DNA of 63,399 nt, filler included, from Psammoneis japonica (taxonomy: Eukaryota), in NCBI GenBank assembly GCA_008632985.1. It is 4 parts of 4 records of this genome, joined end to end, with 100 filler letters (N's around TTAATTAATTAA, not from the genome) between each part and the next. Parts side by side here need not be neighbours in the genome. Positions count along the whole stretch, not along the records: positions 1 to 27,111 come from QPGO01000362.1; 3 more parts are not named here. One strand, written 5' to 3'. The notes under the pieces were generated by a model, which had not been told where the DNA came from, searched no databases, and saw only the letters and a list, made by a program, of their open reading frames with translations. Below are positions 14,982 to 39,814 of the stretch, piece by piece. How positions within the stretch are numbered: position 1 is the first letter of the stretch; every line of letters begins with the position of its first letter. The translations under genes and the position numbers were made by a program.

Positions 14982-15195
14982 CAGATACCAGTTTTGTCTT
15001 CTCAAACAGAGCTGGAAGAAGAAACTGGAAAGGGGGGTATGAAGAGAAGAAGGACGAGGAGTCACACTCAGATAATTCGAGTCCCAATCCGTGCAAATAT
15101 AATCTACGGTACCCCTTCTCGTTCACAGCGAACACTTTCTGCTTTGTTTTAAAGGTTTCAAAGAGTTTTTCCAGTAGCTATTTTGAGTGCCATCA

Positions 15196-16476
15196 TTATA
15201 CAAGGTCTAGGAGCATTGTTTCACTCGAGACAAATTCAGCCGGCGGTGTTTGATGAAACAGACGCACGGCATCTTTGACTTTGAAGACTGAATTCTCTTC
15301 CTGTAGACAGCTTGCTGAACCACACGCCAATCCAAAAGTAAAACCGGATACCATGTGACGAACGCTTGGAGAAGAAATATCCGACTCGGGTACCACGCCC
15401 TTTTCAAGCGTCTCCCGCACCTTTTCCTCGACGCACGCCTCCTTTTCGTCGTTGCTTAGTTCCTTGTAGAATTTCCAAGCTGCAAGTGTACCTGCAGCGA
15501 CAGTATCACCAGCTCCAATGGGATACAAAAGGTTACCATCGCCTTGTCCTTTCAAGTCTGAAATGGAGATTCTATAAATTCCCATATGTAATTTGTCTGA
15601 CGCTTCTTGTTCCAAGGTGACGAAATGAGCTGGGTGCTTTCCGTCTGTAATGGCAAAGCCAGCAAGTGCTTCCGAAGCTCTCGGGAATTTCTTTAGAAAG
15701 CCCTTGGTAGCATCCACCAACTCGATCGAAGTCACACCATTGGCTTCACTGCTGCTCTTTTGGACTCCAGCAAGGCGGCAAAGTTCGGAAGCATTAACTT
15801 TTAAAATGGTAACGCATGGACTCTCCGCAATGGCATTCAGCAGCTGTTCAAGTCCGTTCACCGTGTCGATAACACACTGCAAGTCGTTGCTGGTTGATCC
15901 GCCCTGTTGTTGTACGCTTTTATATATTTGAGCATAGAGGTCGTCGGAACACCCCGGGGGCATACTTCCCATAAAGCAGAGTGCTTCAACTCCAGATTCA
16001 GCTTCGAGCTTGTTCAACAACTCTTCTATTTCATCACTGGTTGTTTCTCCGCTAGGCTCGACAAGCTCTGTCGAAGCATCTGTCGCCACCACGGTTGTGC
16101 AGGTTCTCATGTGGCTTGCAGTGCGAACCGTAAGGGACATTGCGTCTGCGCCCAAGCGATCCTGCAATAGCTCATGAACATTGTCTCCCTCGTAACCGCT
16201 CCCAACAAACTGAGCAACCTTGATTGGATTGCGATAGTGCAGGCAAGACAATGCGATTGCTACATCCTGGCCCTTCCCACCAACACCCACTTGAATGGAG
16301 GACGCTCGATGGACATCTCCAGGGACAAGAAGAGTTTCTTGTGGCAATACAAATCGTTTTTGCAGCGCTCCATTCAATCCAACAATCACTGTAGACGATG
16401 AACCAGTTTTAACCTTACTGGATGACGACAACGACATGGCGGAGGTGATCCAGAAGGTCAGCAGGAACAATCGCAT
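15196..16476 (-). CDS. PfkB/ribokinase-family sugar kinase (1-phosphofructokinase/tagatose-6-phosphate kinase-like) with a signal-peptide-like N-terminus
   Basis: Intact 426-aa ORF; GGKGQDVA, RTCTT, GSMPPG, LKVNASE and PIGAGD signatures. Confidence 0.9.
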   Translation of the reverse strand: MRLFLLTFWITSAMSLSSSSKVKTGSSSTVIVGLNGALQKRFVLPQETLLVPGDVHRASSIQVGVGGKGQDVAIALSCLHYRNPIKVAQFVGSGYEGDNVHELLQDRLGADAMSLTVRTASHMRTCTTVVATDASTELVEPSGETTSDEIEELLNKLEAESGVEALCFMGSMPPGCSDDLYAQIYKSVQQQGGSTSNDLQCVIDTVNGLEQLLNAIAESPCVTILKVNASELCRLAGVQKSSSEANGVTSIELVDATKGFLKKFPRASEALAGFAITDGKHPAHFVTLEQEASDKLHMGIYRISISDLKGQGDGNLLYPIGAGDTVAAGTLAAWKFYKELSNDEKEACVEEKVRETLEKGVVPESDISSPSVRHMVSGFTFGLACGSASCLQEENSVFKVKDAVRLFHQTPPAEFVSSETMLLDLV

Positions 16477-16786
16477 CAGATTTGTTGCTTGAGACTACAG
16501 CACTAGCTAGTTGAGTGGTAAATCCACAGGTTGACTGAAAAATGCATCGTCATGGTGAGCAATGGGCAAGGGGGGTCGGCAACTCGGCAAAACATCAACG
16601 GGATAATATTCTTAATTAATACAGCTACGAAGCAATTTCAATATACTAGATTCTGACGTCATCCTCATTTTTCTCCCCCCTTCCAATCCGCGTCCATCAC
16701 CATCAACGCACGACAAGCGGCGGTGGGTGGAAACAGTGCGATCGAACGATGACGGGCCTAAACCCGTGCTCGTGTTTCATAATAAG

Positions 16787-16885
16787 AGTACTCTACTAGC
16801 TCGAGTAGTAGCTACTCTAGTAGCTAGCTCCTAGCTAGCTAGTAGCTACTCTAGTAGTTCCTAGCTACCAGTAGTAGATACCATA
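16787..16885. repeat. TAG/CTA-rich simple sequence tract
   Basis: ctctactagctcgagtagtagctactctagtagctagctcctagctagctagtagc... in intergenic DNA. Confidence 0.8.
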
Positions 16886-16972
16886 CTGCAGTATCGAGTC
16901 AATGTAGGCGAGAAAACTAAGATCCAACACAACTTTTGGCAGTACCGGTATTTGTGTGCTTGATAGACGAAA

Positions 16973-19900
16973 TTAGTTGGTGTTAATCCAAGACAACCAT
17001 TGTGCCGTATCAGGATGTGGCTTGTCGTTCTCGGGCCCCGAGGACAGACCTGAACCCGAAGAGTTCAAATCAAGCGAACGGTCATCCACATCCGAAAGAG
17101 CAGATTCGTCAATTTCCGAAATATCGTCATTACCGTTCTCCTTTGTGGCATCAATTTTATCAGAGTCGGGTGAAGGTGGTGTGCCATCGCCGTTCGACAG
17201 GGACAAGTTCATTCCAACCAATGATTGCGATTTGTAGAGTTCCATTTCTTCCGAGTATCGAGCTTGGTCTGCTGCAGCAATTCTTCATAAAATTCCGTTT
17301 CCCCGTCATCTTGTGCTTTCTCCCACATGCGCAACAGGACGACAGTTGTAACATTTTTGAGATCTTCGTCCTTCACCTTGCCGGAAGCTTTCATTGCCTT
17401 GCTGACTTCACGCCTCTTTTCTGAACAAAAGAAAGCGTATGCTGACTTGGCGGCTTCTGGTGGTTTCTGGACGGCTCGCTTGCTGCTATCACTTTGAATT
17501 TGAAGCAGCCTCCAGGCGTCTTCCACGGGCATGTCCTCTGGCTTGTCTTGATATTCGTCAGGAAGCTTTACGGTTTTCTTTCTCCAACACAGATATTTTA
17601 CAGCAAACTTCCCGCTCCTAACAAGAATCGCGTAGCCATTTCTCATTCCCAGCTCTGGAAAATCTCCTGCCGTGTTCTGTTCATAGACAGAAACGGATCG
17701 AGTGTCAACCTATTGCGTTCATCGCCAAAAAACAAAGGTGGCGAACTTACCAGAATCTGCATTGATGATTCTCTCGGTTACAATCCTCTCGGCGGTCTCT
17801 GGATCAATTGTTTGAGCATCGCCATCCTCTTTGTCAAGGCGAACATAAATGTGATCGTAGAGCAAGTAAGGCCCATACGGACCGATGCCCGCAACGACTT
17901 TCATCTTGTTAACTCTACATACGGTTCGAGGTAGGTTAACGTACCCTACTGCATCGTCCAGCGTGAGGCCAATAGCTTGGCAAAACGTAGACTCCGAATC
18001 ACGGTCTTGCTCCACCTTCATTTCACTGTTGCGATCCAATTCTCCAAAGTGAGTCGGTAACGAATGAGTTGTAGTTTTCTTCTCGCCAGTCTTTCCCCAT
18101 TGAAGATAAACGCCAAACATGCCCACTTTGAAACGGATCTCTCTTCCATCCTTTGGGTGATTCCCAACTAGCACTCCCTCTTCTTCTCGGGCTGCAATAA
18201 GTGCGCGCAACGCTATTGTGTCGACGGTCGAAATATCGGCCGCCATACTGGGAGGTATGACGACTGTAGGTTTCCTAGACTTGGACACACCGGGTTGGGA
18301 CATCTTTTGTGCGTACGACCTGAAGGTCCAACAAACAAGCCAATTTTGTCTTCTTCCACATCATTGTTCAGGAAGCATTCTGGCAGCGTAGCCATGCGAG
18401 CATCGTCTGGGTTGACTTCTTCCTCGATTCTTGCCACTTGTGCCGCGAACCCATCCTCTCCGGCGTAGAAGGAGTCGAGGAAAGAACACGCCATCCTGTG
18501 TCACTACCTGTTCCACTTGCAACTTCATCAAGCCTTCGATGCATTCCTGCGTTACTTCAGGGCTGAGGTATGTGGCGTAGTGTCTCTCCAACATTGAGCA
18601 AAGTACAAAGGCTGGTAGAGAAGGGACCAAGTCATCACAGGAGTCTTGACCTAAAAGGAAAAAAAAAACGGAAGCAACCAGATCAGTCCAAGAGTATTCA
18701 AAAAGAGCGACTCAACAAGAACAGGTGATTACCAACCTTTTTCGGTATCTCTGACTGTACCCGGATTATCTTTCTCCGGTTTGGTTGTTCGTTACCTTCT
18801 TGCTCGTTCTTTCCGATGCTTTGGAGTTTCCTACGAATCCCTGAAGGCGAAGATTCTGAATGATGCGTGTATATGCACGAGGACGACAGCCTAGTTTGTC
18901 GTGGAGCTCACAGACAAAGGCTGCCTCAGTGAATCGAGATGGAGGCTGTGTCGTGTGGCACACCGTGTGCATATCTGAACACTCAAGGGCTTGGCCGGTA
19001 ACAAGAGTAGGCAGAATTGAATCTGATTCCATCCTCGCCCAAGCTAAAGTGTAACCAGGCTGCAAAATTGAGCTTCCTTTTGTAAGAAACAAGCCTACAA
19101 CATCATCTTTTGAGGACTTGCCCGTGATCTCTACAGATGTCTCACTGATCACCGCCAGAGGCATACGTGACGCCAGAGTTCGGAGATAGATAAGTTCGTA
19201 CAGCTTCATGGCCGGTGCAGAATCGAAAACGGAAAGCTGTTCGGGTCGCAAGAACCCACCATCTGGCTGGACGGCCGGTCGAATGGCTTCTTGTACGTCT
19301 TTCGCAATTTTCGGTTTTATGTCACACCCTTTGCGAGGAGGTGATACCATGTTTGGTCCGTACTTCTCGGCTACAAGCGTTTGTATGGCAGAATGAGCCT
19401 CTTCACTCATTAGCGTGCTGTCGGTGTACACGAAAGAGATACAGCCTGCTTCATAGAGCATCTCTGCTGTTTCCATGGTTTCATGTATGGACATACCCAG
19501 CCGTTCGTAGGACTGCTGCAGAAGTGTCACTGTCGTAAAGGGCTTGGGCGGGGCAATCTTCTTATCCTTCTGTTGCACGGAGGTGACGGCCCAACATGAA
19601 ATGATTCTTAAAGCACAACAATATATCAGAACGACAAAAACAAGTGAGACTTGAGGTAGGCGATACGGGACGTTTGCGACACACAAGGCAAGGGTCACTC
19701 ACGGATCTCGAAGGATTGGAGAACCGTCACCAATTCCAAATGTAGCAAGAAGCTCGTCCGCACGATCTGACGTTAGCTGTTGTCGTTCGGTGTCTATCGC
19801 TGACCCATTGCTATCAGTCTCAGTTGCAAATTTCTCGTCATTAAACGCAACCATGATTGCTTCCACGTCACGATCTTGTCCGAACGATGCCTTCACGATC

Positions 19901-20530
19901 CAGAACTTGGCAGTCTTGTAGGCCAGCGTTCTCGTTCTCGTCGTACAAGGAACTCCATGGCAACAGTCTCCAGCTGTCCGGTCGATATTCCTGGAGCGAT
20001 CTTTTCCTCGATAAGTGGTGTCATTGTTGATTCTACCAATCGGTTGTAGATTTTCTGCGCTATGTCAACATGGGCCAGATTTCGGTCCACTTCGCGTGGG
20101 TTTTCAATGGCCTCGCGAATGGCATCTGGTGTGATTTCAACCAGGATGACTCTTTCATGTGGAGTGGCTGACGGAAGAAGGTGAGATAAATGCCAAGCCA
20201 GCGTCTCGCCCTCGCGATCGGTATTTGTTGCTAATAGCACTTTTTGCGCATCGCGAGCTAGTGATCGTAGCTCTTTCAAGACTGGTTTCTTTCCCGGAAG
20301 TATTTCGTATGCTGGTTTGTACTCATTCTGGACATCTACACCCACAATCGGCTGCTCTTCGGTCTTATTGTGCGACTCGTAAGCAAGATCCCTCACATCT
20401 CCATTTGTTGCCTTCACAACGTAATCGTGGCCAAGATCTTTTCCTTCGACGTATTCTTCAAGAAAGTCGAATACGAGTTCAGCCTTTTCATCCGATTCAA
20501 CAACAACCAAATGATACGGTCGTCCGCCTG
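16973..20530 (-). pseudogene. topA: Degenerate bacterial-type (type IA) DNA topoisomerase I with C-terminal repeats and HMG box
   Basis: TOPRIM motifs LVVVES and ATNTDREGETLAWHL; PPKPFTT.TL.Q; LYEAGCISFVYTDS in place of LYE.G.ITY.RTDS; EAIRP; HTTQPPSRFTEA; GPYGPY repeat; KSAYAFFCSEKR HMG box. Intron at ~19607-19702 and several frameshifts (e.g. ~19925). Confidence 0.8.
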
Positions 20531-22327
20531 TGGGAATGATACCACGTTCCTCGTCATTTTCCTCCTTGCTCTTGACCAGCACACAACATGACCCGCATTT
20601 TAAGCCTGCGTCATCGTCTTCAATCCGTACAGTGATTAGTGCGGCCGTTAAACTACTCAGCGTCCCGGCTAGAAAACACGCCGCCAGCGCAGCTACAGCA
20701 TCATTACCAGCAAACTCTCCTTGATCTTCACCGACGTAAGTGTACAGCAAACCACTCCCAAGAGTACCAAACAGGCGCCCCAGGGCGTTGCTCATGTAGT
20801 AGAACCCCACGCTCACTGCAATTTTATCTGTACTGGCATACTTGACCACCAGATAGGAGTGAATGGAAGAATTTACGGCAAAAATAATGGCAAAGATCAC
20901 AATCCCAGTCACCATCCAAGCAATCATACCACCTCGATCGTAGTCTTCAAAAGTCGACGAGAAGGCCAACACAAGCGTCATTATCAATGTGGGAATACAG
21001 TTTATGACACCCCAGAGGACCTCCGTCCACTTATTTGGCGGTCTTTTGGCAAGTCCCAAAAACAGATTAAAGATGAGGAGATGTAATGCAAGTGGCATTC
21101 AAGACAAGCAATCGCACATCATCTTTTCTCTCAACAGCACACTCACGTTTGGTCAAGTGGACCAGTAACCAGCTGTGGCGTCCAACTTTGAACCTGACCA
21201 TAAAGAATGATGTATCCTCCAAGAAAGGCTCCAACTACCACTCGATCCAAACCAACACCACCACATCCTCCACCCGTATTGATATTTTGACAAACCATAA
21301 ATTCGTTATTGCATTCCGCACCGGGATTGCAATCACTATTCACGTCACAAGTGTCCGTTCCCAATCCTTCACACGAGGGACTTCGTAAAAAGAAGGGAAG
21401 TGGCACTTCAAACCAAAAGTCTCGAGACGCAAACAGAAACAAACGCGCCAAGCTCAAAATGTTCAAATTCCGATTGTTCAGGTTGAAAATGTCGGTCCAA
21501 GATGCATTCTTTTTCTTTGCCGTGCCCAAATTCTTATCCAATCCAATAATGGCCCACGGCATGGCAAGCGCTACTAATCCCATCATGACGGACAGGGCTA
21601 AATAATAGGAAACCTGCAATAGCGCAGAGCCGAGAAAGTAACCAACGCCTTTTAGTGAATTCTTCCAACCGGTAATCAGCGATACGAGCTTGAAGAGTTT
21701 GGTATCTTGCTCTTCGGGTGTGACCAGCTTTGTGACTGTCTTGCCTCCCAATTTTGTTAAATCTTTTGCAATGCCTGCAAACATTTGAGCAATTGTAACG
21801 TAAACGATCGAGGTGCCCTTTGACCAGTCTTCTTGCCATCCAAACAGCAGTCTGCAAAACATCACAAAGTTAGAACGGGTTGAAACCATGAAAACGACTC
21901 GCACTTGTCGTTCGACTTACCCATAGGCAAGCAATTGCAGTGACAGTCCCATGACAAGCGTGACTTTGATACCCCATTTTGCACCCATGACACCGGCAGC
22001 AAGATTGGTAAACACGCCAGCCAACTCGTACAGCGTAAACATGATTGCCACCTCAAAAGCGGAAAAGTTGTTGTTGTACGCATGCAACAGGACAATCATT
22101 CGAATCGCACCATCGGTAACCGTAAAGAGCAAATAGGATGTTGAGATAATCACAAAGGGTCTCAACGCTTCCGAACGAGCCGCATCCATAAAGCTCTGCT
22201 GCACCTCTACTGGTGCCGGGGCCACTTTGTCGTCCGTGATGCTGATTTCATCCTCTTCGTCAATGGGCTGCTCTTCTTCCTTGGATTCTTCTACTTGCTC
22301 ACGTCCCTTTTCAGTTACAGTTTCCAT
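20531..22327 (-). CDS. arsJ: ArsJ-like organoarsenical efflux MFS transporter (3 exons), continuous in frame with the TOPRIM domain
   Basis: FTVTDGAIRM, YELAGVFTNL, GIAKDLTK, TGWKNSLKGVGYFLG, ARLFLFASRDFWF and FAVNSSIHSYL..VGFYYMSNALGRL match ArsJ family motifs. Frame-preserving GT-AG introns at 21852-21920 and 21043-21146. Confidence 0.85.
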
Positions 22328-22613
22328 ATTATCTTCGCTTTGCAAAATGCTTTAGCCGTTTACTCGTCACTTGCTGTTGGACTTTTTGGAAGTGCAACAA
22401 GCAAGAGAGAGTGAATAAATTGGTGATCCTTCGTGAAGCTGACGCCGCATTGCCTGCACGAATCTAACGAATCTGGCCAAAAACGGTTCCGAATTTCGGC
22501 CATCATTATATTTGTATACAATTTTTAATGGTATTAATTACATAAACTATGATAGTAAAACCGGTAAAACGTCCGTTGAAAAGTGGCGGGGAACACAGGG
22601 CCTCTCATCCTAA

Positions 22614-23749
22614 TGGGGCAACGTACTTTCAAAAATCCGGTTCCCAGTGGAATTCTACTTACGTAGAACTAGTACCAGCATCTACGAGCAGAACACAACA
22701 ACATTACACTCATCACGACTACAACACGGATGTCTATCATGTCGGGTATGTCGACGTTAAGGGTGGTCGGTTGCTACTTTTTTTAGCTCGAATTCGGCCG
22801 AATAGCTCGTGTTTTGCATGATTTTTCCTGAATTTCACCGTGCTTCACCGTGGTGAAAACAACAAGCCATAAGTCTGTGACGGAGGTGGTCCGTCTACCA
22901 ACTCTCATTTATTTTATGTTTGTTATGTAACAAAGATTGTATATACATGAAAAAGTTGGTAGACGGCAAACTACGTTTTTGAGAAATATCGATGATTGTC
23001 ATCATCGTCGTGCTTCGGTCGCGGTGCTGATGGTTCTCGTTTTCGTGCGCGATCGGGTGTGACTATGAATAATTCTTGTATTCAAAAATAAACACTATAA
23101 AAAACCTTATTCAAATGCAACGGTAATTTTAGGATAAACGCGGGGATGACCCCCCTTAACGCTCTTCTTGCATATAAAAAACACATCATGCGAATTCGAT
23201 GGGATACAGGATCTTTGCAAAATCAGGGCAAAAATTGTTCCTTCGTGCTTCACCGTGCTAAAAACCCTGTGATAATCCTCCATAATGAGTGAAAATCCAA
23301 CTTTTCGTCAAAATCTCTTGTCGCGTGCTCATTCAGTGCTTCATCGATGCAAACAAACGAGAAAACTCCAAATACACTCCACAAAAAGTGAAAATCAACA
23401 GTCCCACCGCGGCCGAAAACTCTACGTGCTTTCAGTACCAAGTTGTACGTGTCAAAAATCAGTTGTCACCAATCGCTCAATCAGCTCCCAAAATAACTCG
23501 ATCATTGTCATCCAACATTTTTACTACACTTATTATCATATAAGTTGTCGTCTCGGTGCACCAGAACCCCCCAGTTAGCTGTTGTTGTCGCGTGCGGCCA
23601 TCGCCGATGTCGCGGCGTCGTTGCCGTGATGTTTGTGTGTGTCGGAGTGAATTCAAATCGATCACTGCGAATTTCGCAGTACATTCTACATACGTAAATT
23701 TTGTGTAGATTAGTACGGGAACCGGATTTTTGAAAAGTACGTTGCCCCA
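22614..23749. mobile_element. Non-autonomous PIF/Harbinger-like element (MITE)
   Basis: ~32-bp TIRs (tggggcaacgtactttcaaaaatccggttccc and its reverse complement at 23717-23749) flanked by TAA on both sides; no transposase. Confidence 0.8.
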
Positions 23750-23760
23750 TAAGCCATGTG

Positions 23761-24225
23761 CACTAGTACAAAAATCACGTAGAAATTTTACGTAGAAAAA
23801 ATTATAAAAATTAGGGTTTGGGCCGATTTTTTTCTCGTGCTTCTACCGTGCTTCTCTGCTCCACCGACGCCTCAAGGAATCGTTTTCCCCTGAAACCATT
23901 GACACTTTACATGATGACTTTTACACAAGTGACACGATTCTGTGCGTGAACACTTCAAAATTCCATTTTCAGAAATTCAATCAACACTTCACTACGGTCC
24001 TGCCACGGCAAACATTTTCCAATGATGGAACTTTGCCGAACGGTGGACATCGTCGTGTTTGTCATCAAAAAGCAAGTGCGCAAAGTGTCAACCGTTGTGA
24101 CTGAAATCGATTCCTTGAGGTCGTGGCCCATTTTTCGCAAAGCACGGGAAAAGCACGACGAACAAAACATTCTGCGCGAATTTTCTACGTGAGTTTTTGC
24201 ACCAGAAATCGGCCCAAACCCTGTT
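23761..24225. repeat. Inverted-repeat-bearing transposon end remnant
   Basis: 23763-23796 is inverted at 24171-24205; agggtttgggccgattt (23813) is inverted at 24206; begins with CACTA. Confidence 0.45.
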
Positions 24226-24514
24226 TTTCGGGGACTCACAACCCCTGCACATGGCTCACAGTGATGGATGAAAAGACGACAAGCCAAAACCAGTGCCTTG
24301 TACATGCGCTGCTGAGTCCTGAGGTCATCTCAGTGCTTGTTGCAACTGTTGGCGAATTCGTTGGCTGAAACAATTGCCAGCTTTGCTCTGCAATGCACAA
24401 GAAGCATCGCGGTTGAGGAGCAACCACGGCAACAGTTGCATGCATTTAGGGCACGTGATGGGAATGGTGTGCTGGCAGCATTGGGCGCCAATTGCCTTGC
24501 TTGCTTGATCTTCT

Positions 24515-25794
24515 TCAGACCAGGTGTTCAGCGAAATCATCAGGCATTTCCGCCATTTCAGTCGAGCAGAATTGCTCAATGTCGCGCAGGTGCGGTGCGT
24601 CCCTGTCGGTGACGAAGTTGATGGCTGCGCCCTTCTGTCCAAACTGACCAGCATGACCAATGCAATGAATGCAGTTTTCTCGGTTCGTCGGGATGTCGCA
24701 GTTGATTGCCAATGAGACCTGTTGGACATCAATTCCCCGAGCCAAAAGGTCCGTGCTGACAAGCACACGAGACGACCCCGAACGGAACTCTCGCATGATG
24801 GTGTTGCGTTCTTCCTGCTCCAAATCACCATGCATGCACGAAACAGTGAAATCACGGTTTTGAAGCTCTTCCTGAAGCAGCTCCGCCTTGCGCCGCGTGT
24901 TGCAACAGATGATTGCTTGACTGATGTTGACAGATTCGCAGAGGTCGCAAAGGCATTCCAACTTCCAGTCTTCACGTCGGAGATCAACATAGAATTGCTT
25001 GATCCCCTCAAGGGTGAGCTCATCCTTTTTTACAAGAACTCGGACTGGGTCGCGAAGGAACTTCTTGGTCACATCGAGAAGATCCAAGGGCGTGGTTGCC
25101 GAGAAGAGGCAGACCTGAGTTGTCTCGGGAATGTGCCGGAAAATGTTGTAGATCTGCTCGCGAAAACCTTGAGAGAGCATCTCGTCCGCTTCATCAATTG
25201 CAACTTGACGCAATCCATTCAAGATGAGGGCACCTCGTTCGATCATGTCGAGGATACGTCCTGGCGTACCGACCACAATGTGAATGCCTCCACGTCTGAG
25301 AATGCGGATTTCATCGCGGACAGAATTATGGCGGCCACCAACACTGACGTGAACACGAACACCCATGCGGTCACCGAGAGACTCCATGACCTGATGGATT
25401 TGCCTCGCCAGTTCTCGGGTGGGTGCCAAAACAATCGTCTGACAGGCCTTTTGCTTGGGGTCAAGTGAAGCAAGCGTTCCAATCGAGAACGCCCCTGTTT
25501 TTCCGGTGCCACTTTGTGCCTGAGTGATCAAATCTGCCCCAGCATCACTGGCTTAATCGCGCGTTGCTGAATGGCGGAGGGTCTCTCAAAGCCATGCGCA
25601 CAGATGCCCCGCAGAAGGTCTTCAGGCAGTTCCATTTCTTCGAAGCTTTCAATGCTTTCGTCTACACGTGTCGTCGACGACTCATCCGTCGCGACGCAAC
25701 TAGGCTGAGATGACTCATCATTGTGGCAAGAGGGGTTTTGTTCATCAACAAGGACTGTTGGTTTGTTGTTGCTCTTGTTGTCTTCTTGGTTCAC
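24515..25794 (-). pseudogene. eIF4A: eIF4A DEAD-box helicase pseudogene (intronless)
   Basis: [43 protein letters not shown]; frameshift at ~25530; motif VI decayed to [12 protein letters not shown]. Confidence 0.93.
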
Positions 25795-27111
25795 AAACCA
25801 GTCAGATGCTTTTGTCCTCGTCCTTCTTCAAAGAGATCAGAGGGTTTTCTTTGGTTTGGTTTGCTGTTGTTTTACTTTGCATTTCTTTGTTTTGTGGCAG
25901 TGCGAACTTCTTGTGTCGCCACTGGGCACGCCCAGACGTGCACATGTGATGCGCACGACTCACAGCGGCTCAGATGCATGACTGACTCAAACCCAACGCA
26001 ATTGCACCTGACGAACAACAAAGAACAATGTGTCATGGATTCACTCCACCTGAGTCTCAAATCAAAACGTTTCTGCTGCCTGCAGAGCAGGCCTCTCTAT
26101 GCAGTTAATTGTCCGTGTACAAACAGCATGTTTTGACCAAACACAAATGATGTGAACATGATGTGCACGTGCTCCAGTCCAAAACACACCACCAGAACAA
26201 TGTCTCGCGCACTCCTTGGCGGTTTTTCCTTTAACAGCAAATGAGCAAACAGTGCAGAGAACAGGGGCACATGCATGGCATTGGGTGTTTTTGGCCAGAC
26301 ATTGCATTGGAGTCTGAAAAATCACAAAAAGACAACATCTGACAAGAGTCGAGTGCTGTTGCTGCCTCTGAGACGCCCCCCCATGCAGCCAATTGAGGAG
26401 CACAGCTTGACACCTCAAGTGCCCACCAGCACAGTTAGAGCAGCTCAAATGGACCCATCACCACAACCAAATGCCCGCTGCCAACACTCTCCCAAGTTTT
26501 TGAAGCACAGACACAGTGCTCCCACATGCCCCTCAGCACAGGACACTGACATGACAAGCCATCATCACATTTTCAATCATGGATGAGTTTGTGCATTTTG
26601 CAAAATTGCCTCTTTTTCTGTTGGTGATCATTGACATTTTCATCACCTGATGACTTCAGTGCAGAGCTCGCACGCAGAATTCTGCGGGCCCAGTGCCACA
26701 CGGATTCCCACCTGCATCTGGAGCGCGTCCACAGCCAAATGCCTGCTGCTGCTGCTGACAGTTTCTCAAGTGTCAAGGACACACAAACAATTTTTTTTGC
26801 CCTGCTCACATGATGCAAACCTGATGGCAATGTTCCATTGAGCCAAATGTGTGCTCTGTTGGAAGGTCAAGAGCTGTTGCAAAAGAAAGTTGAAAAAGAC
26901 TGCTTTGAACTCAGAGACACAGAGCTGATCCACACAGTGTGTTGCACAGAGTTCAATGATGCAGAAGATTCATGGTGAGATGGGAATGTGTTGTAGTGGC
27001 ACCAGACTTGCCAGCAGAGTCAAATGCTTTTGGTCAATTGCAGGAGTTGTTGCACTCTAATTTTTGTGTGACCAAGGGTGCAGTCACAAGTGGATGATGT
27101 TGCACAGCAAG

Positions 27112-27211
27112 NNNNNNNNNNNNNNNNNNNNNNNNNNNNNNNNNNNNNNNNNNNNTTAATTAATTAANNNNNNNNNNNNNNNNNNNNNNNNNNNNNNNNN
27201 NNNNNNNNNNN
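27112..27211. other. Artificial contig linker (N...TTAATTAATTAA...N)
   Basis: The same spacer occurs at 47313-47412 and 51533-51632. Confidence 0.95.
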
Positions 27212-27917
27212 TGGGACCTTCTTCGCTGGCAAGTGCAGTGGGCATCCCCGCCACAGCCACCAATGATGCCACTTTCCTGTGTCTGCAGGCTGTCCGCAGT
27301 GATGCTGATCCTGCAGAAGCATGCACTGGAAAATGCACTCCCAGTGTAAGATCCATGACAGGCTGCGGGAGACCCACGTGACTGAGACCGGCGTGACTGG
27401 CCATCGTGCAAGTGACTCAACTTGCACAGAGGGACTGTGCAGGATGCACACAGTGCCAAGTGTGAGCCTGTGGATTGGCTCTGCATGAGTGTCAACAAGT
27501 CATGCAAAAGACTCATGTGCAAGTCTTTCCAATGACTTGTTGTTTAACAAGAATTCTGGTTTTTTGGAAAAAAGCACCATCGCACACAATGTTTGCACTC
27601 CAACTAAAAAATGGTCTCATGATTTTACACAACACAGAAAATCTCCACCTGAGTGCTTGCACCCTGTTCCTGCACAGGTCAAGGCATTCTGCCTGCAACC
27701 AAAAATCAGTGTCCAATGCACTGTTGGGGTTCATGATGCATGTCCCATGAGGAATTGAATGCCAACAAAAAAGCTGTTTGTGTGTTCACACTCTAAACAC
27801 CTGTGAAAGCCCATCCACCTGAGCACTTTGTGTTCAAATGCTCCACGCATGAGACACATGCAAATCATGTTCAAAATGGATTGTCGTTTTGCGTGTCACC
27901 TGGGGCTGGAACATGTC

Positions 27918-28330
27918 ATTCATCCATTTTCCTTTGGCTGCATCATGCAAACAGTTTTCAAAATTGTCAAACAATTCCAGTCCAGGAGCACACTGCAGTT
28001 GACAAGCAACCTTGTGAAAACGATTTTTCACATGTGGGAGCACTTCAATTCCATGCTCTCCTGTAAAAACAGGGCACACACACGTTGGCTTTGAACCATC
28101 ATTGCACTCTTGCACAAGCTTGACATCCTTCAATTCAGCATGCACAAATGTGGTTTTTTGTGCTCAATGCATGCCATCTCCAAAGCCGCTTGGCACATGG
28201 TGTTGCAAGCATTTGGTGAAAAAAAAAACAGTCCTGCGCAATTGCAGAAATGATGCAATCCCACTGAAACCAGATGACAGCAATGATCAACAGGAACCAA
28301 AGCAACGTGAATTCTGATGCAGCAACATGC
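27918..28330 (-). mobile_element. Possible retroelement gag-like fragment, next to a partial copy of the GACGTG-TIR MITE
   Basis: PVFTGEHGIEVL..V.NRF...LELFDNFENCLHDAAKGKW; 27730-27917 resembles 35815-36003. Confidence 0.35.
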
Positions 28331-30450
28331 GTTTCCAAGTTGAAGAGCCACTGCTCCGCACATCACCAAATTCACTGGCATGATTGCGCTTCTGCTTCTT
28401 TTGTGTTTTTTTCTTCCTCTGCAACTCGAGTTTGAGTGAATTGTTTTTCTCTTTTCACCAACCTTCGTTCTGATGATGCAGCTGTCAATGTCACACAAAG
28501 CAAACTCAAAAGCAAGCTGTTGCAACGACCTCAATTGCAGTGCAAGGTCTGGCTTCAAAAGACTTGATGTTCTTGGGAAAATTGTGAGGAGACTTGGAAG
28601 GGCTCGCGCTGAGAGAGAACCCTCTCCAACACCACCTTGCACTGACCAATCACATGTGTCAGAGGACAGAGGAGGCACTCTCAGTCATTTTAGAGCACGA
28701 ACAACTACAGTGATTTCGTTCATGAGTTGGGATGAGTTGCACAGCACACTGTGTGATAACTTGTGATCACTTGTGATTGCTTTTGATCAGTTGACGTCTT
28801 TCCGCGACCAACTCTCAATTGACATTTCACGATTGAAAACATTGGCCGATTTGGCGAGCACAGAATGTGTCTCATGGCTAAAGCAATGTGAACCTTCATG
28901 GCATGTTTGCACATTTGTCCGTTGTGTCATTGCAAATGTGTTGAGCAATGGCAATTCGCAGAAGGTGCTGAAAAACAATCAACACAAATCAATGAATGTT
29001 CATCTCTTCGTAACTGTGCAACGCCAATCACTTAAATCTGCGTTGGATTTCAATTGGCACACATGACTCCTAGAATTCGGGGACATTAAAGACAAGTGGC
29101 ATTTCAATTTTGAGTTCCCGAAAGGTTCTTTAGTCTCCAATCACTCTCTTGTGCTGCATGACATTGTGCACATTTCTGCGTTTTTCTCTGCCAGTAGAAG
29201 GGCTGAACATGACTGGCTGGCAACGGCCACATGATTTGATTTTGATGTGGAACGGTTTTTGGCACATGTCCGGTCACGCACACTGCAAATGAGAATCACT
29301 CTGAACAAGCTGTTTTCGCTCTAAATAAAAAACAAACAGAGCATTTTGCTCCGATTGCAAGTGCCAAACAATCAATTGTGGCTTTGCTCCATTTGAGCCA
29401 TGGTCAGAGCGACATGCTCTGTGCATGAGACAATCAGAGCAAAATGCCAACATTTGCCCTGTTCAACCGCATTCAGAGGATGCCTTCGATTGAGTGCAAT
29501 TGTTCAGGGCATTCGCTTCAAACAACTGCAGCCTCCTGCGACCTTTTACATTCTCAGAGCAAATGGTTTTTCTTCAAAGCAAATGAACAATGAACACATG
29601 CACACACAATGAGACGCAATGATGGACAATTCAAAGCGTCATTGGCACATGTGCACGCATGCATTCATGGTTGCCAGTCAATGCTCGTAATCTCGTTTTT
29701 GTTTGTGGCGATCTCGACGAGCATCGTTGTTGCTCTGTTGTTGTCAATTGTCGCCTGTGTCGGCGCGCATCGCACACACAACACAATGTTTTTGCATTTC
29801 CACCTTTGTCTGTGTGAGTCATGGCCTCCACAGCCTTCTCCACATGCTGCAAACATTGCTTCTCGACTGTTCCATTGACTCAATGTGACAACTCCAACAG
29901 CATCGTAAACATGGGTGATTGCCTCCATTCCGGCAAATGTCTCAACCCGGAGTGTTCAGTTGATTCCTTTTTTGTCTGCGAATGCTGCTGGAACAGCAGC
30001 AACACAAACAGCGGTGGTCATCATCTTCCAATTCTTAAAGATTGGAAAACCTGCGCCAAGCATGCCAAAACTCCAACTCATGTGCAATCCTTTGAAGCTT
30101 TGAAAGCCGCACCAACAAGCAGTGCAAATGCCGTGTGTGCACCGGCGGAGCCCACACACGACGAATGTTGGTGCAACGATGACAATGACGCCTCTGTTTC
30201 CGAGAGCAAGGAGCCTTCCAACCAAGATGATTGGATTTATGACGTCAATGATGCCGGCTCACGTCCTCCATTGTGCATTGATGATCTCCGACAAGGTTTT
30301 GATCCGGGATCCAACAGCCCGGCCTTTTTTTGGTGCGAGCATTCGCACCCCGGACATGGCATCCAGAGATTGACAGCTGAAGCTTTCGAATTGCCCGTCA
30401 CCGAGGTGACCAAAGAAGAGGCCCATTTTTCACTTGTGATGGCTAGCCTG

Positions 30451-31652
30451 CTTTCACAAGATGACGGCGATGCTTTGTTTGCACAGGCGTTGTCACTGAG
30501 GAAGAGGGAAAGGAAAAAGAAAAGAAACTCAAGGCAGCAGACAGGAGGAAAAAGAGGAAAAAGTCAAGCCGTGACAAGAATGAAGAGAATGACATCCTGT
30601 TTGTGCCGACATGGGATCTGTTTGGCCCAGACACCATCACCGGCGGCAAACGAAGGAACAAGCAGGCGCGCAAGTGGTTCTGTGATCACATCCTGCCTCA
30701 AACCAAGCAAAAGCAGGCATGGAGTGGCGCCATCAAAGCTGGGAACGCACAGGTCTCACAGTTGTTTGCGGTCGGTGACGAAGCTTTGGCGCTGTCAGCC
30801 ATGGAGAATTGTTGGCAGGTGTGGGCATGCAGGAACAAGGAGGAGGCAGTGGAAAAATTGGGTGAGGAAATGGAGCCCGAAGAAACAAGGCCTGCCCCTT
30901 GGCACATGAAGCCAAAGAAACAACAAGTGTCTTGGGGAGACAGCAGAATCAATTGGTCCAACGATTTGTGCAAAGAGGTGATGAAAGACAGAGACTCCAA
31001 GGAGGGCAAGGAGTTTGAAAAGTGGTGTGCGGAGATCAAGAAAAGCGAGTGCGAGAAGTCTGGAGAAGCAAAAAAGAAGAAAAAGAAAGCACCGACCGGT
31101 GATGCAGACAAGGTGAAGGCAATGAACAGCCTGATGGTGGAGAGCAGCAGGGGCGACAATGGCGATGACGATGAGCAGGAGGAAGGTGCTAAAGGCAAAA
31201 CGGACGATGGAGGAGACGAGTCCGATGATGATCGTCAGCTCAGTTCAAGAGAGTTGCAGCAAGAAAATGTGTGCACAGCAAACATGGCACTCGGTCATTG
31301 CACTGCAGATGCAACAAGGGATTGACTTGACTGATGAAATGCTTTTCTCGTTTAAAATGATGTGAGCAAAAATTGACAAACCAAGGATTGTGTGGAAATG
31401 CAACCATGCACTGGCACATGGCAACAAGGTGGAGGCAGATGCAGCAATGTGGGCACAGTGAAAAATGGCACGCACAATTCTCAGCAAGTTGTTGCAAGAT
31501 TGGCGCAGCAAACTTGCAACCAGAGGTTGGCCTTTCACTGCACAACAACAATGTTTTGCAACATTTTGACAAATTGTCGTCATGCAAATCTGCACATTTT
31601 TGACATTTTGTGCACTCTGATGATCAAAGTGCTGCGGCGGTGTCTCAAGCTC
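30451..31652 (+). repeat. ~1.2-kb direct repeat of 46150-47312 (transposon accessory ORF fragment)
   Basis: Near-identical sequence and translations (WFCDHILPQ..DEALALSAME..NDLCKEV). Confidence 0.9.
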
Positions 31653-32678
31653 AAGATGAAATTGGCTGGAGACAGACCCCCAATGGGCGCTTCTCATCTT
31701 TGTGGAACAAAGCTCAGCCATCATGCTTGCTGTCAGCTGGATTGTGCCGCTCCTTGTCGAACATGGAAAAGCGCTCAGATTGGGCCGCTGCGATTGGCAG
31801 TTTTGTGTGGCCCCAGCGGCGGGAGCTCTCCATGATGGCGCTGCACATGGGCGCAATTTGGGCACAAGAAAGTCCTCACAGCACCGTGACGCCGAGGCAG
31901 AAGCACAAGCCATCCACTCCAAGGCAGACAGCTTTTCAGCTTGCAATCGATCCGAGTTGCTCAGTTCAGCGGAGGAGCATCTCACTTGTTTGACCCGCAG
32001 GTTGCGCAGCTGGTTGGCCATGGCTCAACCAGTGTTCAAGCCAAGCATCTGCAAAGCCTGGCGTCTGGCAGCAAGGGGCGCTGGTGCCATCGCAAGTTGT
32101 TTTGGCACAACACCGCCTCAGGGTGATGCCGGCTGAGGACGTGCAAAACCAACAATTTGACCGCAATGTAAAAAGTTGACTCCATCATGATGTTCCATTT
32201 GAGAGGGCAGTCCAGAGATGGCCTGGTGCACTTTTTTTGCAGAAGCTGCACGAGAGCCAAGCACGTGCATTCCTGCACAGATGCAGCACAAAAACAGAAA
32301 GCGCGGCACGCCCATCAGCGACTCACGACAACACCGCGTGACGACCACGCATCAAAATGGCGTCACCCGCATCTTTCTGTGGCTCCTCTTTTGCTTGCCT
32401 GATTGCCCCAAAAGGGCCAGGGAAAGCTCGCGCACTTCTGTCATGATGGATCAACGCAAACAAAGTTTTGGTTTGTGAAGAATGTCCAGGAGCAGCAGAA
32501 GCGCAAGAAAAGGCCCTGTTTGTTTGGGCCACACAGGACAGAAGGAAGTGTTGGTCAGAATTGTTTCTAAAATGGGATGTGCGCATCAATCTGTCATTCA
32601 CTCACAGTGTGTGCATTTTCAGAGCAATTGCTTCCTCATGGATTCCATGCAGTGACCACTTGCGCGGTCCGTTTGGTC

Positions 32679-33232
32679 GACGTGTTCCAGTCCCAGGTGA
32701 CGCACAAAATGACAATCGGATTTTGAATGTGATTTATGTGTGTTTTAGTGTGCAGAGCATTTTAACAAAAATGCTTGGACGGATTGACTTTTGTGGGCTT
32801 CTAGAGCATGAACATTTAAACAGTTTTTTGAGGGGCATTCAAATCCTCATAGGACATGTGTCACAAACTTCCTCAGTAGACTCAGTGCTGATTGTGCGTC
32901 AGCAGATTTATGCTGAGATTTTTTGCAGGTAGAAAACCTGCCAAGCAGCATCGTAGAAAGACACATTTGGGCAACATCCAAATGACGGCAACATTTTCGC
33001 CGAAAATCATCTGTTGTGTTGCGAATCTTTTGACGCAATGAAAAACACAGACAGCACAATGACAATGATGTTGCAACACTCACACGAGTCTTGTCAGTGT
33101 TGCAAAACATTCACATTTGAATGGGTCCACACTTTTGGTGGTGAAAGTTCGATCGCAAGTCAGGGACCGCGCAAAAATCGCGCAAATGTCGTTTTTGTGC
33201 ACGATTTGGTTCACGTGCGGCTGGAACACGTC
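32679..33232. mobile_element. ~555-bp MITE with 12-bp TIR GACGTGTTCCAG and 4-bp TSD GGTC
   Basis: ggtc|gacgtgttccag...ctggaacacgtc|ggtc; the empty site with a single ggtc is present in the other arm (~43121-43132). Confidence 0.88.
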
Positions 33233-34816
33233 GGTCATCCTGTGCCATGAAAAATGGATTTGTTGATGCTGTCAATTGCAGATTGCTCCCTCTCCACCAC
33301 TCTGTTGGTGTCTGTGTCAGAGTTTGCCCTGAGGCTTCTCAGAAGCAATGTCGAGTCACAGCTGTGCAGCATGTGCAGCCTCAACTCTGATTTTTGATGT
33401 CCCGCAACGGAGACTGGGAGCCCCAATTCTTTTGCGTCAAATGCGTCACCATGAAGAAAGCGTTGGAAACTCATTTCTGGTTTGCTGCAATTTTCCACTG
33501 CAACAATGCAGTCGTTGTCTGAATGGTGTGTCTTGGTTGATGACTCAATGAGCTGCGCATGGATGTGCTCAAATTCGCGAGCGGTTGTTGCTTGATTTGA
33601 CAAAGCACTGTCAAGTGCGGTCGTTGCAGCCACAACGGCACAGCGGGCTTCTGCCATTGCTTCTGCCAATCTTGACACAGCAGCCTTTGCATCCTTTGCT
33701 CTCTGTTCCTCCAAACAACGAGCAGCGTCAGCGTGGACAAAACCGCCAACTGTCTCCATCACCCGGCGACGGAAATCCTCAGCAGCGGATGGACGGAGTT
33801 CATCTGACATGGTTTTCTTCCAATGCTCTGATTGTTGTGGTCGTGGGTCCGCCGTTGCATCCACCAGATTGGTCGCGCGTCAGTCACAAAATTCTGGCTT
33901 CTGTGGAAACATGCCAGAGTGGTGCGCGGGAGATGTTGCATGCGCGCCTGGCAGGATTTGGAGTTTTGTGCACAAAAACCTGCCAGATGCATGCGCAACT
34001 TCTCCCAGAGAAATCCCGCGTGAGATTGCACTGGGAAAGGGCAGTGCGGAGTGCAGAATTGATGGAAGAAAACATTGGGAGGAACAGCATCAGGAGAAAG
34101 GGTGCATGCACTGGAGAACAACATGGGTCTCTACATGCGCGGCAAGGTGCGTGAAGAACACGTGGGTGCCTTCAAGTGACGCACGAGAACAACCACAAAG
34201 AAACGTTTGGAAATGGGGGCAGCACAGAGAGAAGTCAGAAACATGGGTCCAAAACAAACTGATGCACGATGAAAGGGATGGCAACTGGGTCGATGAAAAA
34301 GAAGGACTTGGGTGGAAAGACGCCGGAGACGGTGAAAACAGGCAGCACCAAGATGAAGAAGGAAGAGAAAAGCGGGGCGGGAAAAATGAAAAAAGAGAAA
34401 AAGAAGCAGACGACACGACGTCAAGAGGGGAGCAGCGACAAGATTCTGCACTTCGAGGGACCTCCTCCTCTTGATGATGCTCGCCCAAATGCAAGAAGTG
34501 CAGTGTGGCTTTTTTGGAACGGCGACAGGAAACATCCAACGTGGCAGCGGCGCGCACATTTGAAGTTCTTGCAAGAGAGCAGAAAAGACAAAGCAGAAGA
34601 TCAATGACCAGCCAAATGACAAAAACCATCATGTGCAGACAAGCAGATTTTGTGGTGTGGCAATGCATTTTTGTCATGTGTGCAGATGTCGCAACATCGT
34701 GCACTCTGATGACGGGCATTTGCTGGGCACAGCACCTTGTCGTGAAGCCAACACACAAAACACATTGTCGTGCTGACAGACAAGATGTCATGTGCCAAAG
34801 ATTCAGAGACAAACTC

Positions 34817-35025
34817 CAACCCTGACCCCAGCCCCAAACCCAACCCTGACCCCAACCCTGGCCTTTTTTGCATTTTCGCATTTTCGCGTTTTCGCATTTT
34901 CGCGTTTTCGCATTTTCGCATTTTGGCGTTTTTGCATTTTGGCGTTTTGGCATTTTCGCGTTTTCGCGTTTTCACGTTTTCGCATTCGCGTTTTCGCATT
35001 TTCGCATTTTCGCATTTTCACATTT
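34817..35025 (+). repeat. Degenerate telomere-like hexamers followed by an 8-bp microsatellite; mirrored at 41258-41352
   Basis: caaccc tgaccc cagccc caaacc caaccc tgaccc caaccc, then (gcattttc/gcgttttc)n. Confidence 0.8.
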
Positions 35026-35447
35026 CGGTTCTGCCATTGCCTCAATGTCACAGTGGAGAAGTGCATGGCTCTGCTGCTCCTTTTCTGTCTCTCCGGACAT
35101 TTTGGAGAAATGGAGAGCTTCCTTGAGATTTTTGTGTCACAGGACATGCTCGCCTTTCGCTCGGTGGGATTTCTCAACGGGCCAACCTTGGGTCATGGTG
35201 CAGGGCCAAATGTCGGGACAGCCAAGAGTTTTCCTTGCAACGTCATTGGCGTGGATGACTTCGACAACATGTGGAGCACGGCGCGACTTCGGCTTGTTGC
35301 AAAGGAGGGGAAGAGCGAGGAATTCTGGAAAGGGGGTCAAATTCATCAACTCCAAAAACTGCTTTTTGGAGGTGCGTGTTGCAGCCGTGCTTTTGAGCTT
35401 GGGTTGGAACAGCTCAAATCCAAGGCCATTGGTGAGACATTCTGTTT

Positions 35448-36003
35448 GACGTGTTCCAGGCGCCCGCGACCCAAGTCGTGCACAAAAACAACATTTGCGC
35501 GATTTTGGCGTGGTCTCTGACTTGCGAGCGGTTTTTCACCACCAAAAGCATGGATTTGTTCAAGCTCGAATGTTTTGCAACACTGACAAGACTTGTGTGA
35601 GTGTCGCAAAGTCATCGTTGTTGTGCTGTCAATGTCCTTCATTGCGTCAAACGAGCCGCAACACAGCGGATGATTTTTGGCAAAATTGTTGCCGTCACTT
35701 GGGTGTCAACCAAGCATGTCTTTCTGCGATGCTTCTTGGCAAGTTTTCCACTTGCAAAGCACTCTCAGCACAAAATGCACTGACGCACAATCAGCGCTGA
35801 GTCTGCTGAGAAAGTCTGTGATGCATGTCCCACGAAGACTTTGACACCAAACAAAAAACTGCTCAAATGTTCGTGCTCCAGATGCCTGTGAAAGCCAGTC
35901 CGCTCAAGCATTTTGTGCTGAAATGCTTCATGCACTTGAAGACACACAATTTACACTCAAAGTTGATTGTTGTTTTGTGTGTCACCTGGGGCTGGAACAC
36001 GTC
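35448..36003. mobile_element. Second copy of the GACGTG-TIR MITE (opposite orientation)
   Basis: Same TIRs; flanks gttt and attt. Confidence 0.85.
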
Positions 36004-37049
36004 ATTTCATCAAAATTGCAGCCCTCGGAAATTTGGAAAGAAGGGGCAGGGTTGACCTCGTCATCAGACGGGGCAAAGTCATCAGCCACCATGGCCAACA
36101 GTCAGCTGCCGATTCGCGCAGAATGCACAGGAATCACAACAGCACACCCTCTCGTCAAATGCACCCTGGGAAGAGGGTGTGCTGTCATGAAATGGGCAGA
36201 GTCCTGCGCATGTGGAAAATGTGCCAAAATGCAGGCAGGGAGCTGTTGACTGGAAAACTGGTGGGCGCAGGTGAAAACAAGGCAATTTTTTGGTGTTGTT
36301 GACAGAATGAAAAAAGAAGGGGAGGGAGAGGAGAAGAGAGGAGAAGAGAGGAGAAAAGAGAGGAAAGAGAGGAAAAGGGAAAAGAAGGGAGAAAGAGTTC
36401 AGCACTGCAAGTCCAAGTGTGTGTCATCGCACTTTGTTTTGATGCAAAAAATCTGGTTCTTCAGCAGACATTTGTGTGAGCACCAGATGCATCCACAGTT
36501 GGGAAATCAACACTGCGCTGCTGTCGCGCCATTCAGCCAGACCAGTGATCACCAGCAAGAGCAACCTCAAACTTGCCTTCTGTCAACACAAAAAGCAAAT
36601 GTGCCCTCATGACAGGTGCACTCATTTCCATCTCTCGCTGCCGTCTCGACTTTCGACCGGCATCCCGAGGGTGACACCACGGCCCGACGGCGTCACCGCA
36701 GCCCCTTGGCATTTCCGCAGCCCCTCCCCTTTCCCAAGGTCTGTTGATGGCATTGTTGCATTGCAGCCAGCGAAGTCGATTTCATGCTCCCAACATCCGT
36801 CGATGGCGTCACCGTTGCCCAGCTCCTTGCCAACCGTGATGCCAACAGCAGCAAAAACACAGAAGCAGTTTTTGTCCATTTTTGGACTTTCTCATCTCTG
36901 TTTTCTTGGGCACACAACATCAGAGTAAAATGTGGAATTGACTTGCATTGGCGTTGTTTGCAAGAGAAGGTTTGGCGGCAATGGTCGAGCATCAGCTGCT
37001 TCTGTGCCATCATGGTGGTTTTTTGTGATGGTTTTCTGCACTGCGTTGT

Positions 37050-39720: not shown

Positions 39721-39814
39721 GCATTGTCTCGCTTGAATGTGGAGAACTGTTTTGCACTCACTGTTGCTTTGTTTCTACAAAGTTTGCATCTTTTTCATGT
39801 TCGTCGGAGGCACA

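Follow-up and report, generated by a model that had tools for sequence, protein, structure and literature searches.

One of the two haplotypes of the diatom Psammoneis japonica appears to carry a host helicase gene that has been destroyed by mutation directed at the dinucleotide TpA. The gene lies on the minus strand at 24515..25794 of a window of 63,399 nucleotides, filler included, in which four parts of four records of assembly GCA_008632985.1 are joined end to end; all positions given here refer to this window. We put at about three in four the probability that the sequence found there, which we call allele W, is one haplotype's allele of a single-copy, diatom-specific eIF4A-like gene, and that it lies in a domain rich in transposable elements (TEs) that is subject to dinucleotide-targeted hypermutation in cis. 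Adenines in TpA, preferably in the context 5'-TAY-3' (Y, pyrimidine), have been converted to G on either strand, with TA becoming TG or CA. The change is saturating within the patches that are hit, regional, and specific to one version of the locus, and some CpG has gone to TpG or CpA alongside. These changes have removed the start codon, eight of eleven conserved tyrosines and the four arginines of helicase motif VI. Hits crowd towards the two ends of the gene and into the flanking DNA, and about 350 bp in the middle received few.

A damaged member of a diatom-specific helicase group

Allele W has 426 codons, no intron and one frameshift: two minus-strand open reading frames (ORFs), at 25528-25794 and 24515-25531, fuse via a one-base shift into the 426-codon frame. 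The predicted protein contains the Pfam domains DEAD (3.5e-39) and Helicase_C (6.2e-31), and its best match among solved proteins is human eIF4A-I (E 2e-127), followed by yeast eIF4A (4e-121). In a collection of 5.8 billion proteins, the closest matches share about 70% identity and derive from diatoms or from marine and freshwater metagenomes; P0004-P0007 and P0016, an Epithemia protein by its source label, are among them. With the window's protein as query, no near-identical protein was found in that collection, and because the best matches are only about 70% identical, it holds the product of neither allele described below.

Is this gene eIF4A itself, as an earlier note made from the sequence of this locus had proposed? 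Two insertions, GGRxxxVR and RGGIH, and an N-terminal extension are common to the window's protein and to P0004-P0007, P0012, P0016 and P0022, whereas the insertions and the extension are absent from four canonical diatom eIF4A proteins. A stretch resembling MxQED…VFDE is present at the N-terminus of the window's protein in the alignment. Because the two insertions and the extension match those of this group, the gene is, judged from its sequence, a member of a diatom-specific eIF4A-like paralogue group. The proposed identity is therefore right in so far as the gene encodes an eIF4A-like DEAD-box helicase, but not in the sense of canonical eIF4A.

The altered protein strings quoted in that note, GICAHGFE, DLCE, IICCN, INCD and ENCIH, can all be read on the minus strand of 24515-25794. 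Their altered tyrosine columns lie at 25602 and 25596 (GICAHGFE), 24940 (DLCE), 24907 (IICCN), 24700 (INCD) and 24673 (ENCIH); the first two form a conserved pair just upstream of the Q motif (25594..25604, minus strand) and are now Cys (TGT) and His (CAT). If a tyrosine column is counted when it is conserved in at least 10 of 11 relatives overall, or in at least 6 of 7 of the paralogue group, there are eleven such columns, of which six now read Cys, two His and one Arg, while two are still Tyr (25150 in QIYN and 24991 in QFYV). At 25792..25794 (minus strand), aligned to the relatives' Met, stands a GTG preceded by T. This agrees with the suggestion that tttGTG derives from tttATG, and the start lesion would thus be T|ATG to T|GTG, that is, TAT to TGT.

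In helicase motif VI (24629..24667, minus strand) four Arg CGN codons are now TGC, CAT, CAG and CAG, and the motif reads HCIGHAGQ, the family pattern being HRxGRxGR; motifs I, Ia, II, III and V are present. Over the gene, 14 of 19 conserved CGN Arg codons survive, and the four coding CpG hits fall within 28 bp. What the note had inferred about action on DNA outside TEs is borne out, since a host helicase gene has been hit.

We aligned contigs of three public sequencing runs, all from one sample, to 21000-27100 at 80% likeness. They bear on the frameshift, which the earlier note did not mention. At 25531..25542 (minus strand) allele W is one base short, between 25534 and 25535, relative to a contig of the run termed X1 here, whose extra T restores the frame. 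A contig of a second run, X2, lacks the insertion at this exact place, and the frameshift is either a real allele difference or an assembly slip; it lies next to a four-base homopolymer, of C on the plus strand and of G on the coding strand. Because motif VI, the tyrosines upstream of the Q motif and the ATG are lost, allele W is predicted to be non-functional, a dead member of its family and a pseudogene even if the frameshift is not real.

Loss of TA runs in one direction

The gene contains 9 TA versus 73.2 expected from its base composition (ratio 0.12), and relatives of similar G+C hold about 45-55. The TA ratio of seven intact-looking ORFs of the window is 0.47-0.64. Among 50 tabulated related loci, of 80 fetched from metagenome contigs, it ranges from 0.28 to 0.96 with 13-135 TA, and no second TA-depleted case was found among these 50.

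Which way did the change run? The protein family and a second version of the locus both polarise it, and both uphold the direction from TA to TG or CA that the note had read from the gene. W departs from the family at 31 of the 238 columns that are conserved in at least 10 of 11 relatives. Ten of the replacements need only TA>TG/CA (Tyr to Cys or His, Val (GTA) to Ala (GCA), and Ile to Val after T). Six need only CG>TG/CA, four of these being the arginines of motif VI, and the Arg of the frameshift codon probably adds a seventh; the remainder are five other transitions, seven transversions and two double changes. Since conserved Cys and His columns are unchanged in W, the traffic is one-way.

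A second version of the locus keeps the TA sites

Over 24332-24738, run X1 is represented by two contigs: one, of 407 bp and depth 33.5, equals the window letter for letter, and the other, at depth 23.7, departs from it by 35 differences and 7 gaps. The two depths sum to 57.2, and neighbouring single-copy genes stand at 57.5. In run X2, a 1562-bp contig of the second version has a depth of 13.7 versus 27.5 for neighbouring genes and spans 24258-24448 and 24517-25877, with 13 and 50 differences. The 68 bases in between (24449-24516), just downstream of the stop codon, are skipped by this contig and mark an indel between the versions. No third version at 80% identity or more aligned to the gene among the contigs of the three runs. 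Because each version has about half the single-copy depth, and both together have all of it, the two are most likely haplotypes of one single-copy locus, W in the window and O.

Of 387 rows of differences, 40 are listed, 28 of them within 24303-24923, as are 12 of 47 rows of indels, and the absence of a place from the list is not proof of identity. With the listed differences applied, O has Tyr in IIYCN, INYD, ENYIH, PYLRD and QFYST and Val where W has Ala, and it encodes an intact motif VI, HRIGRAGRFGRKG, with CGN at all four Arg. Its 3' third contains at least 11 TA, about 7 per 100 codons (6.6-17.9 in related genes). In the neighbouring gene stretch, 21000-22347, 7 of 1348 positions differ (0.5%), transversions included; divergence in the hit stretch is about 16 times this background. 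The TA losses of W are younger than the split of the two versions and are confined to one of them.

Could W instead be a duplicated copy, struck by a repeat-triggered process akin to fungal repeat-induced point mutation (RIP), with O its functional paralogue elsewhere? An unmutated second version does exist, and RIP in fungi is triggered by duplication and can leak into neighbours, both of which would suit such an origin. However, in X1 as in X2 the depths are those of two halves of a single-copy locus, no third version at 80% identity or above aligned to the gene among the run contigs, and the contig of O runs on into the 3' flank that W has (24258-24448). The neighbouring element, although of very high copy number, has not lost its TA, and the hypermutated region of the chlorarachniophyte Bigelowiella natans, to which we return below, is single-copy. 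We consider a duplication improbable. The note had taken the gene for a duplicated copy of a functional paralogue; this is probably not the case, as the unmutated version at half depth fits the other haplotype.

Spectrum and target motif

Of the 28 listed rows that distinguish W from O, 13 have TG or CA in W where O has TA, and none shows the reverse; the W-specific state is found at all 13 TA sites. Seven rows have TG or CA in W where O has CG, with three in the opposite direction, two adjacent rows represent one CA/TG pair, and three are transversions. Altogether 25 of the 28 are transitions at TA or CG, and none of the listed transitions lies elsewhere. GC-biased gene conversion is ruled out by this spectrum: it would not be TA-specific, nor would it give CG>TG/CA.

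The 13 TA-type sites comprise eight TG and five CA with the strands interleaved. At all eight that are strand-asymmetric in context, the change occurred on the TAY strand (p = 0.004); of the others, four are RTAY (R, purine) and one is YTAR. Strand-coordinated clustering of the kataegis type is ruled out, as the strands alternate according to the local TAY context. The same preference is seen when survival of TA is compared between 42.7 kb of depleted and 11.6 kb of normal DNA, with per-kb ratios computed from the counts. Survival is about 0.29 for YTAR (TTAA, CTAA/TTAG, CTAG), about 0.08 where one strand reads TAY, and about 0.017 for RTAY, of which eight survivors are left in the 42.7 kb. 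Counts in depleted versus normal DNA are 0 versus 33 for ATAT and 2 versus 66 for ATAC/GTAT, and the RCA (= TGY) products are the most enriched in depleted DNA. These survival values are roughly those expected if each strand were hit independently.

A modified base at TA, for example N6-methyladenine or a modified T, might have been miscalled, in which case the mutations would exist in the assembly only. The frameshift does sit beside a four-base homopolymer, a typical site of long-read error, and at some of the window's TG/CA sites (24906, 24923) the X1 contigs disagree with it, all aligned depth there reading TA. Against miscalling, an X1-only contig matches the window over 24332-24738 without a single difference in 407 positions, 35 allele-distinguishing sites included, and X1 contigs also match over 25849-26598 (no other letters, one gap) and 26666-27100 (no differences). 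The matching contigs stand at depth 32-34, and noisy reads would not be expected to give such k-mer contigs; moreover, miscalls at TA would yield neither CpG changes nor transversions nor an allele-specific pattern. An artefact of this kind is very unlikely.

Nor does ordinary pseudogene decay or allelic divergence, by methyl-CpG deamination and drift only, offer a tenable account. CpG>TpG/CpA is found in both versions (seven in W and three in O in the listed rows), and allele-specific methylation has reportedly been seen in a pennate diatom (PMC13398520); these points are in its favour. Yet all 13 TA-type changes belong to W, O having none; the listed transitions all fall within TA or CG, and only three transversions are listed. 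The two versions diverge by 8.6% at the hit end versus 0.5% in neighbouring genes, and every TA is gone over 24448-24989.

Adenosine deaminases acting on RNA (ADARs) are known as metazoan enzymes, which counts against a processed retrocopy whose source mRNA had undergone heavy A-to-I editing, read as G, by an ADAR-like enzyme. That the gene is intronless, while several related loci have matches exceeding the coding length, and that ADAR favours U before the edited A, as stated in the Discussion of the B. natans preprint (bioRxiv 10.64898/2026.01.13.699255), would fit such a retrocopy, but it is hardly credible given that both strands are changed and interleaved (8 TG and 5 CA of 13 allele sites), that the changes reach beyond the limits of a transcript, through non-coding flank and across tens of kb of surrounding DNA, and that the unmutated version has the same flank.

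The centre of the gene is spared

The earlier note described a gene hit at both ends with its centre spared. This profile largely holds: three TA survive in the 5' part, six in the centre (24980..25330, minus strand) and none in the 3' part, although the 5' part does keep its three and the centre reads His at one conserved Tyr (25135). The central survivors lie at 24990, 25031, 25149, 25255, 25267 and 25327, all in 5'-TAY-3' context and two of them in RTAY; the ggtacg singled out in the note is the reverse of 25265-25270. Expressed per 100 codons, TA density in the 5' part, centre and 3' part is 1.9, 5.1 and 0 in W versus 9.2, 9.6 and 11.4 in 16 related loci chosen at similar G+C. The central value of W is within the relatives' range (3.5-16.5), and both end values are outside theirs.

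The concentration of six of nine survivors in the centre has a binomial p of 0.025. Of the columns that at least 10 of 11 relatives conserve, none of the 69 central ones has a TA- or CG-type replacement, compared with 17 of 169 in the rest of the gene (Fisher p = 0.004). Both p-values are descriptive, as the borders of the centre were those of the note and had been picked from the same data. CA plus TG amounts to 49 versus 43.8 expected in the centre, and to 86 versus 57.9 and 80 versus 57.6 at the ends.

A heavily hit patch, 24303..24940, covers the 3' third of the gene and its flank, and no TA is left between 24448 and 24989. Departures of X1 contigs from the window number 35 in 407 positions over 24332-24738, 5 in 490 over 24709-25198, three of the five sitting at 24896-24923, and 8 in 460 over 25268-25726. 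The alleles thus differ by about 1% in the centre versus 8.6% at the 3' end. When these counts are taken from the X2 contig's 50 differences, the remainder suggests that differences become dense once more over 25727-25877.

Why was the centre spared? Because its six survivors all lie in the favoured TAY context, it is not intrinsically resistant; it was either unexposed or restored. Action in patches, which would not have reached this stretch, and gene conversion of the centre of W by O, which would have restored it, both predict that W equals O there, and it may be either. Of the patchy or inward-spreading action that the note had envisaged, the patchy profile is found, but inward spread is not separable from patchiness or from gene conversion by the sister allele.

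Points that weigh against the hypermutated-haplotype reading

Several observations count against our interpretation or bound it. The O allele is known for 24303-24923 only, from the 40 listed rows of 387, and its density of differences at the 5' end was obtained by subtraction only. Logan contigs pop bubbles and may be mosaics of both alleles, and the depths are contig means, not copy numbers. The runs come from one sample and are perhaps the assembly's own data, lending weak independent support. Within the spared centre, position 25135 encodes His where 7 of 7 relatives of the paralogue group have Tyr. The element at 22610-23753, close to the gene, is of very high copy number (word depth up to about 13800 versus 57 for single-copy DNA), yet its TA content is normal. 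Finally, there is a CpG>TpG/CpA component here, whereas in the B. natans preprint 210 of 211 changes are AT>GC and no CpG component is described.

The surrounding window

The gene lies at one edge of a TA-depleted domain, 24001..63399, in which the TA odds per kb are 0.00-0.18 up to 62000 and those of CA and TG 1.3-2.2. A second TA-depleted stretch occupies 1..9000 (TA odds per kb 0.00-0.21 over 1-10000), likewise with an excess of CA and TG. The control stretch, 11000..22600, has ordinary TA and contains acyltransferase, PfkB kinase and type IA topoisomerase ORFs; TA odds per kb are 0.46-0.83 over 11001-24000, and the best matches of the PfkB kinase ORF are from pennate diatoms (50-57% identity). 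From these matches and those of the helicase we take the window to be nuclear DNA of a diatom. Copia RVT_2 remnants are present in the depleted domain (50526-51455) and in the second depleted stretch (within 5006-9370). The CpG ratio of the depleted parts is uneven, from 0.06 to 0.9: it is 0.06-0.28 at 1-2000 and 26000-28000 versus 0.5-0.9 in the rest of the depleted domain. This suggests elements of different age or methylation history within one TA-depleted compartment.

At the graded left border, into which the second depleted stretch passes, a long WD40-repeat ORF at 9340-11034 on the plus strand (Pfam WD40, 7.8e-48) has a TA ratio of 0.28 and a CA+TG ratio of 1.43. Its TA density rises toward 11000, placing it between the normal genes and the depleted domain, and it may be a second host gene being eroded.

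Adjoining the border of the large domain is an element of 1144 bp (22610..23753) with 37-bp terminal inverted repeats that are 94.6% identical. It may be a young DNA-transposon insertion that escaped hypermutation or post-dates it. Because this high-copy element keeps its TA while a single-copy gene is hit, repetition as such does not predict hits. A very high-copy repeat at 26508-26915, with the highest summed word depth in X1 (about 66800), is depleted in both TA and CpG. Other copies of 22600-24300, 24300-26500 and 26500-27100 were not found within the window by BLAST.

A 23-bp satellite occupies 53253-56503 and 56875-57325 (about 143 and 19 copies, 78-83% matches). Its consensus is A-rich on the plus strand and contains no TA, and the satellite accounts for a block of low G+C and for some spurious Pfam 'ice-binding' matches of long ORFs. 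Stop-to-stop ORFs of 150-600 codons abound on both strands of 24001-63399, often overlapping and mostly without a Pfam match; these spurious ORFs are long because TAA and TAG are nearly gone. The N runs at 27112-27211, 47313-47412 and 51533-51632 each consist of two 44-N blocks with 12 bases between them. Further N runs lie at 48916-49082 (167) and 62238-62893 (656), the last of which distorts the 1-kb composition row of 62001-63000.

Comparison with known systems

In mutation-accumulation lines of B. natans, de novo A>G and T>C changes occur only at TpA in silent inserted viral DNA (Mettrop et al., bioRxiv 10.64898/2026.01.13.699255). Two silent viral insertions mutate there at a rate of about 6e-7 per site per generation, and TA-poor, CA+TG-rich clusters in that genome are enriched in reverse-transcriptase and transposase domains (bioRxiv 10.64898/2026.01.13.699255). 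By its sequence, the P. japonica locus matches the signature of this recently described type of TpA hypermutation, in a diatom. As in B. natans, TpA goes to TpG or CpA according to strand, and low TA with high CA+TG is the footprint. In both, the changes are confined to regions of kb to hundreds of kb, the target can be single-copy, and reverse-transcriptase or transposon-like sequences are among those hit. The regional clustering of low TA with raised CA+TG is thus found here as well. As for exclusivity to TpA, the 28 listed rows contain, next to the 13 TA>TG/CA, 10 CpG-type changes and 3 transversions, with no other non-CpG transition.

Unlike B. natans, a chlorarachniophyte, the host is a stramenopile. 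Depletion goes further, with TA ratios of 0-0.2 versus 0.45 given in the preprint for a region derived from a nucleocytoplasmic large DNA virus, and the targets include an ordinary host gene, which seems to be affected on one haplotype only. The evidence presented for B. natans is de novo mutation in the laboratory, whereas here it is a footprint. The preference for a 3' pyrimidine (TAY) is unmentioned in their text; the main text of the preprint mentions neither diatoms nor flanking-base context. Our literature searches did not find a report of TpA hypermutation in a diatom.

To our knowledge, RIP is known from fungi only. Like RIP, the process inferred here would inactivate repeated or foreign DNA by dinucleotide-targeted transitions, saturate whole regions and leak into single-copy neighbours. 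Unlike RIP, which changes C to T at CpA and thereby makes TpA, it destroys TpA, and no dependence on duplication is seen. Fungal RIP itself is ruled out: the direction is opposite, TA is depleted, the hit gene is single-copy by depth, and the high-copy neighbour is unhit.

The A-to-G change could result from enzymatic deamination of adenine to hypoxanthine in DNA. What kind of enzyme might do this? A TadA/ADAT2-like deaminase is a candidate, by analogy with the preference of its relatives for U or T before the target A: members of the TadA/ADAT2 family and base-editor deaminases convert A to I, read as G, and require or favour U or T 5' of the target. Native TadA depends on UACG, and TadA-8e favours UA (PMC12296453); ADAT2 of amphioxus and trypanosomes reportedly acts on DNA, on A and/or C (cited in bioRxiv 10.64898/2026.01.13.699255). 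The natural members act on tRNA, however, and domain-specific action on chromosomal DNA is hypothetical. Ordinary decay of methyl-cytosine in a domain that is silenced might account for the CpG changes, as might a secondary activity of the deaminase. These changes resemble methyl-CpG deamination in silenced transposon domains, with CpG>TpG/CpA and CpG ratios of 0.06-0.9; such deamination explains the CG part at most and cannot remove TpA.

Implications

We tentatively propose that diatoms possess a cis-acting genome defence that deaminates DNA adenine, a system similar to RIP but of opposite chemistry (5'-TAY-3' to TGY). It would be aimed at silenced, methylated TE domains and be able to engulf a neighbouring host gene on one haplotype. 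We hold this to be possible rather than probable. As a chlorarachniophyte has the same signature, such a TpA system may, by analogy, be old and widespread in the SAR (Stramenopiles, Alveolata, Rhizaria) supergroup, and in some diatom genomes it could be a hidden source of strongly diverged alleles.

TpA-directed A-to-G hypermutation of chromosomal DNA has been described once before, in the 2026 chlorarachniophyte preprint. At the locus of P. japonica, the unmutated sister sequence can be read together with a strongly conserved protein to settle what each site was originally, a comparison that footprints usually lack. The locus thereby yields the direction of change and an extended target motif, TAY, that points to TadA/ADAT-like chemistry. 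It also provides evidence that the process works in cis, on a single haplotype and patchwise over a few hundred bases at a time, and that it can kill a host gene. The mechanism becomes testable. In other algal genomes, TA-depleted compartments could be mistaken for ordinary divergence, or could confuse gene prediction because long spurious ORFs arise once TAA and TAG vanish.

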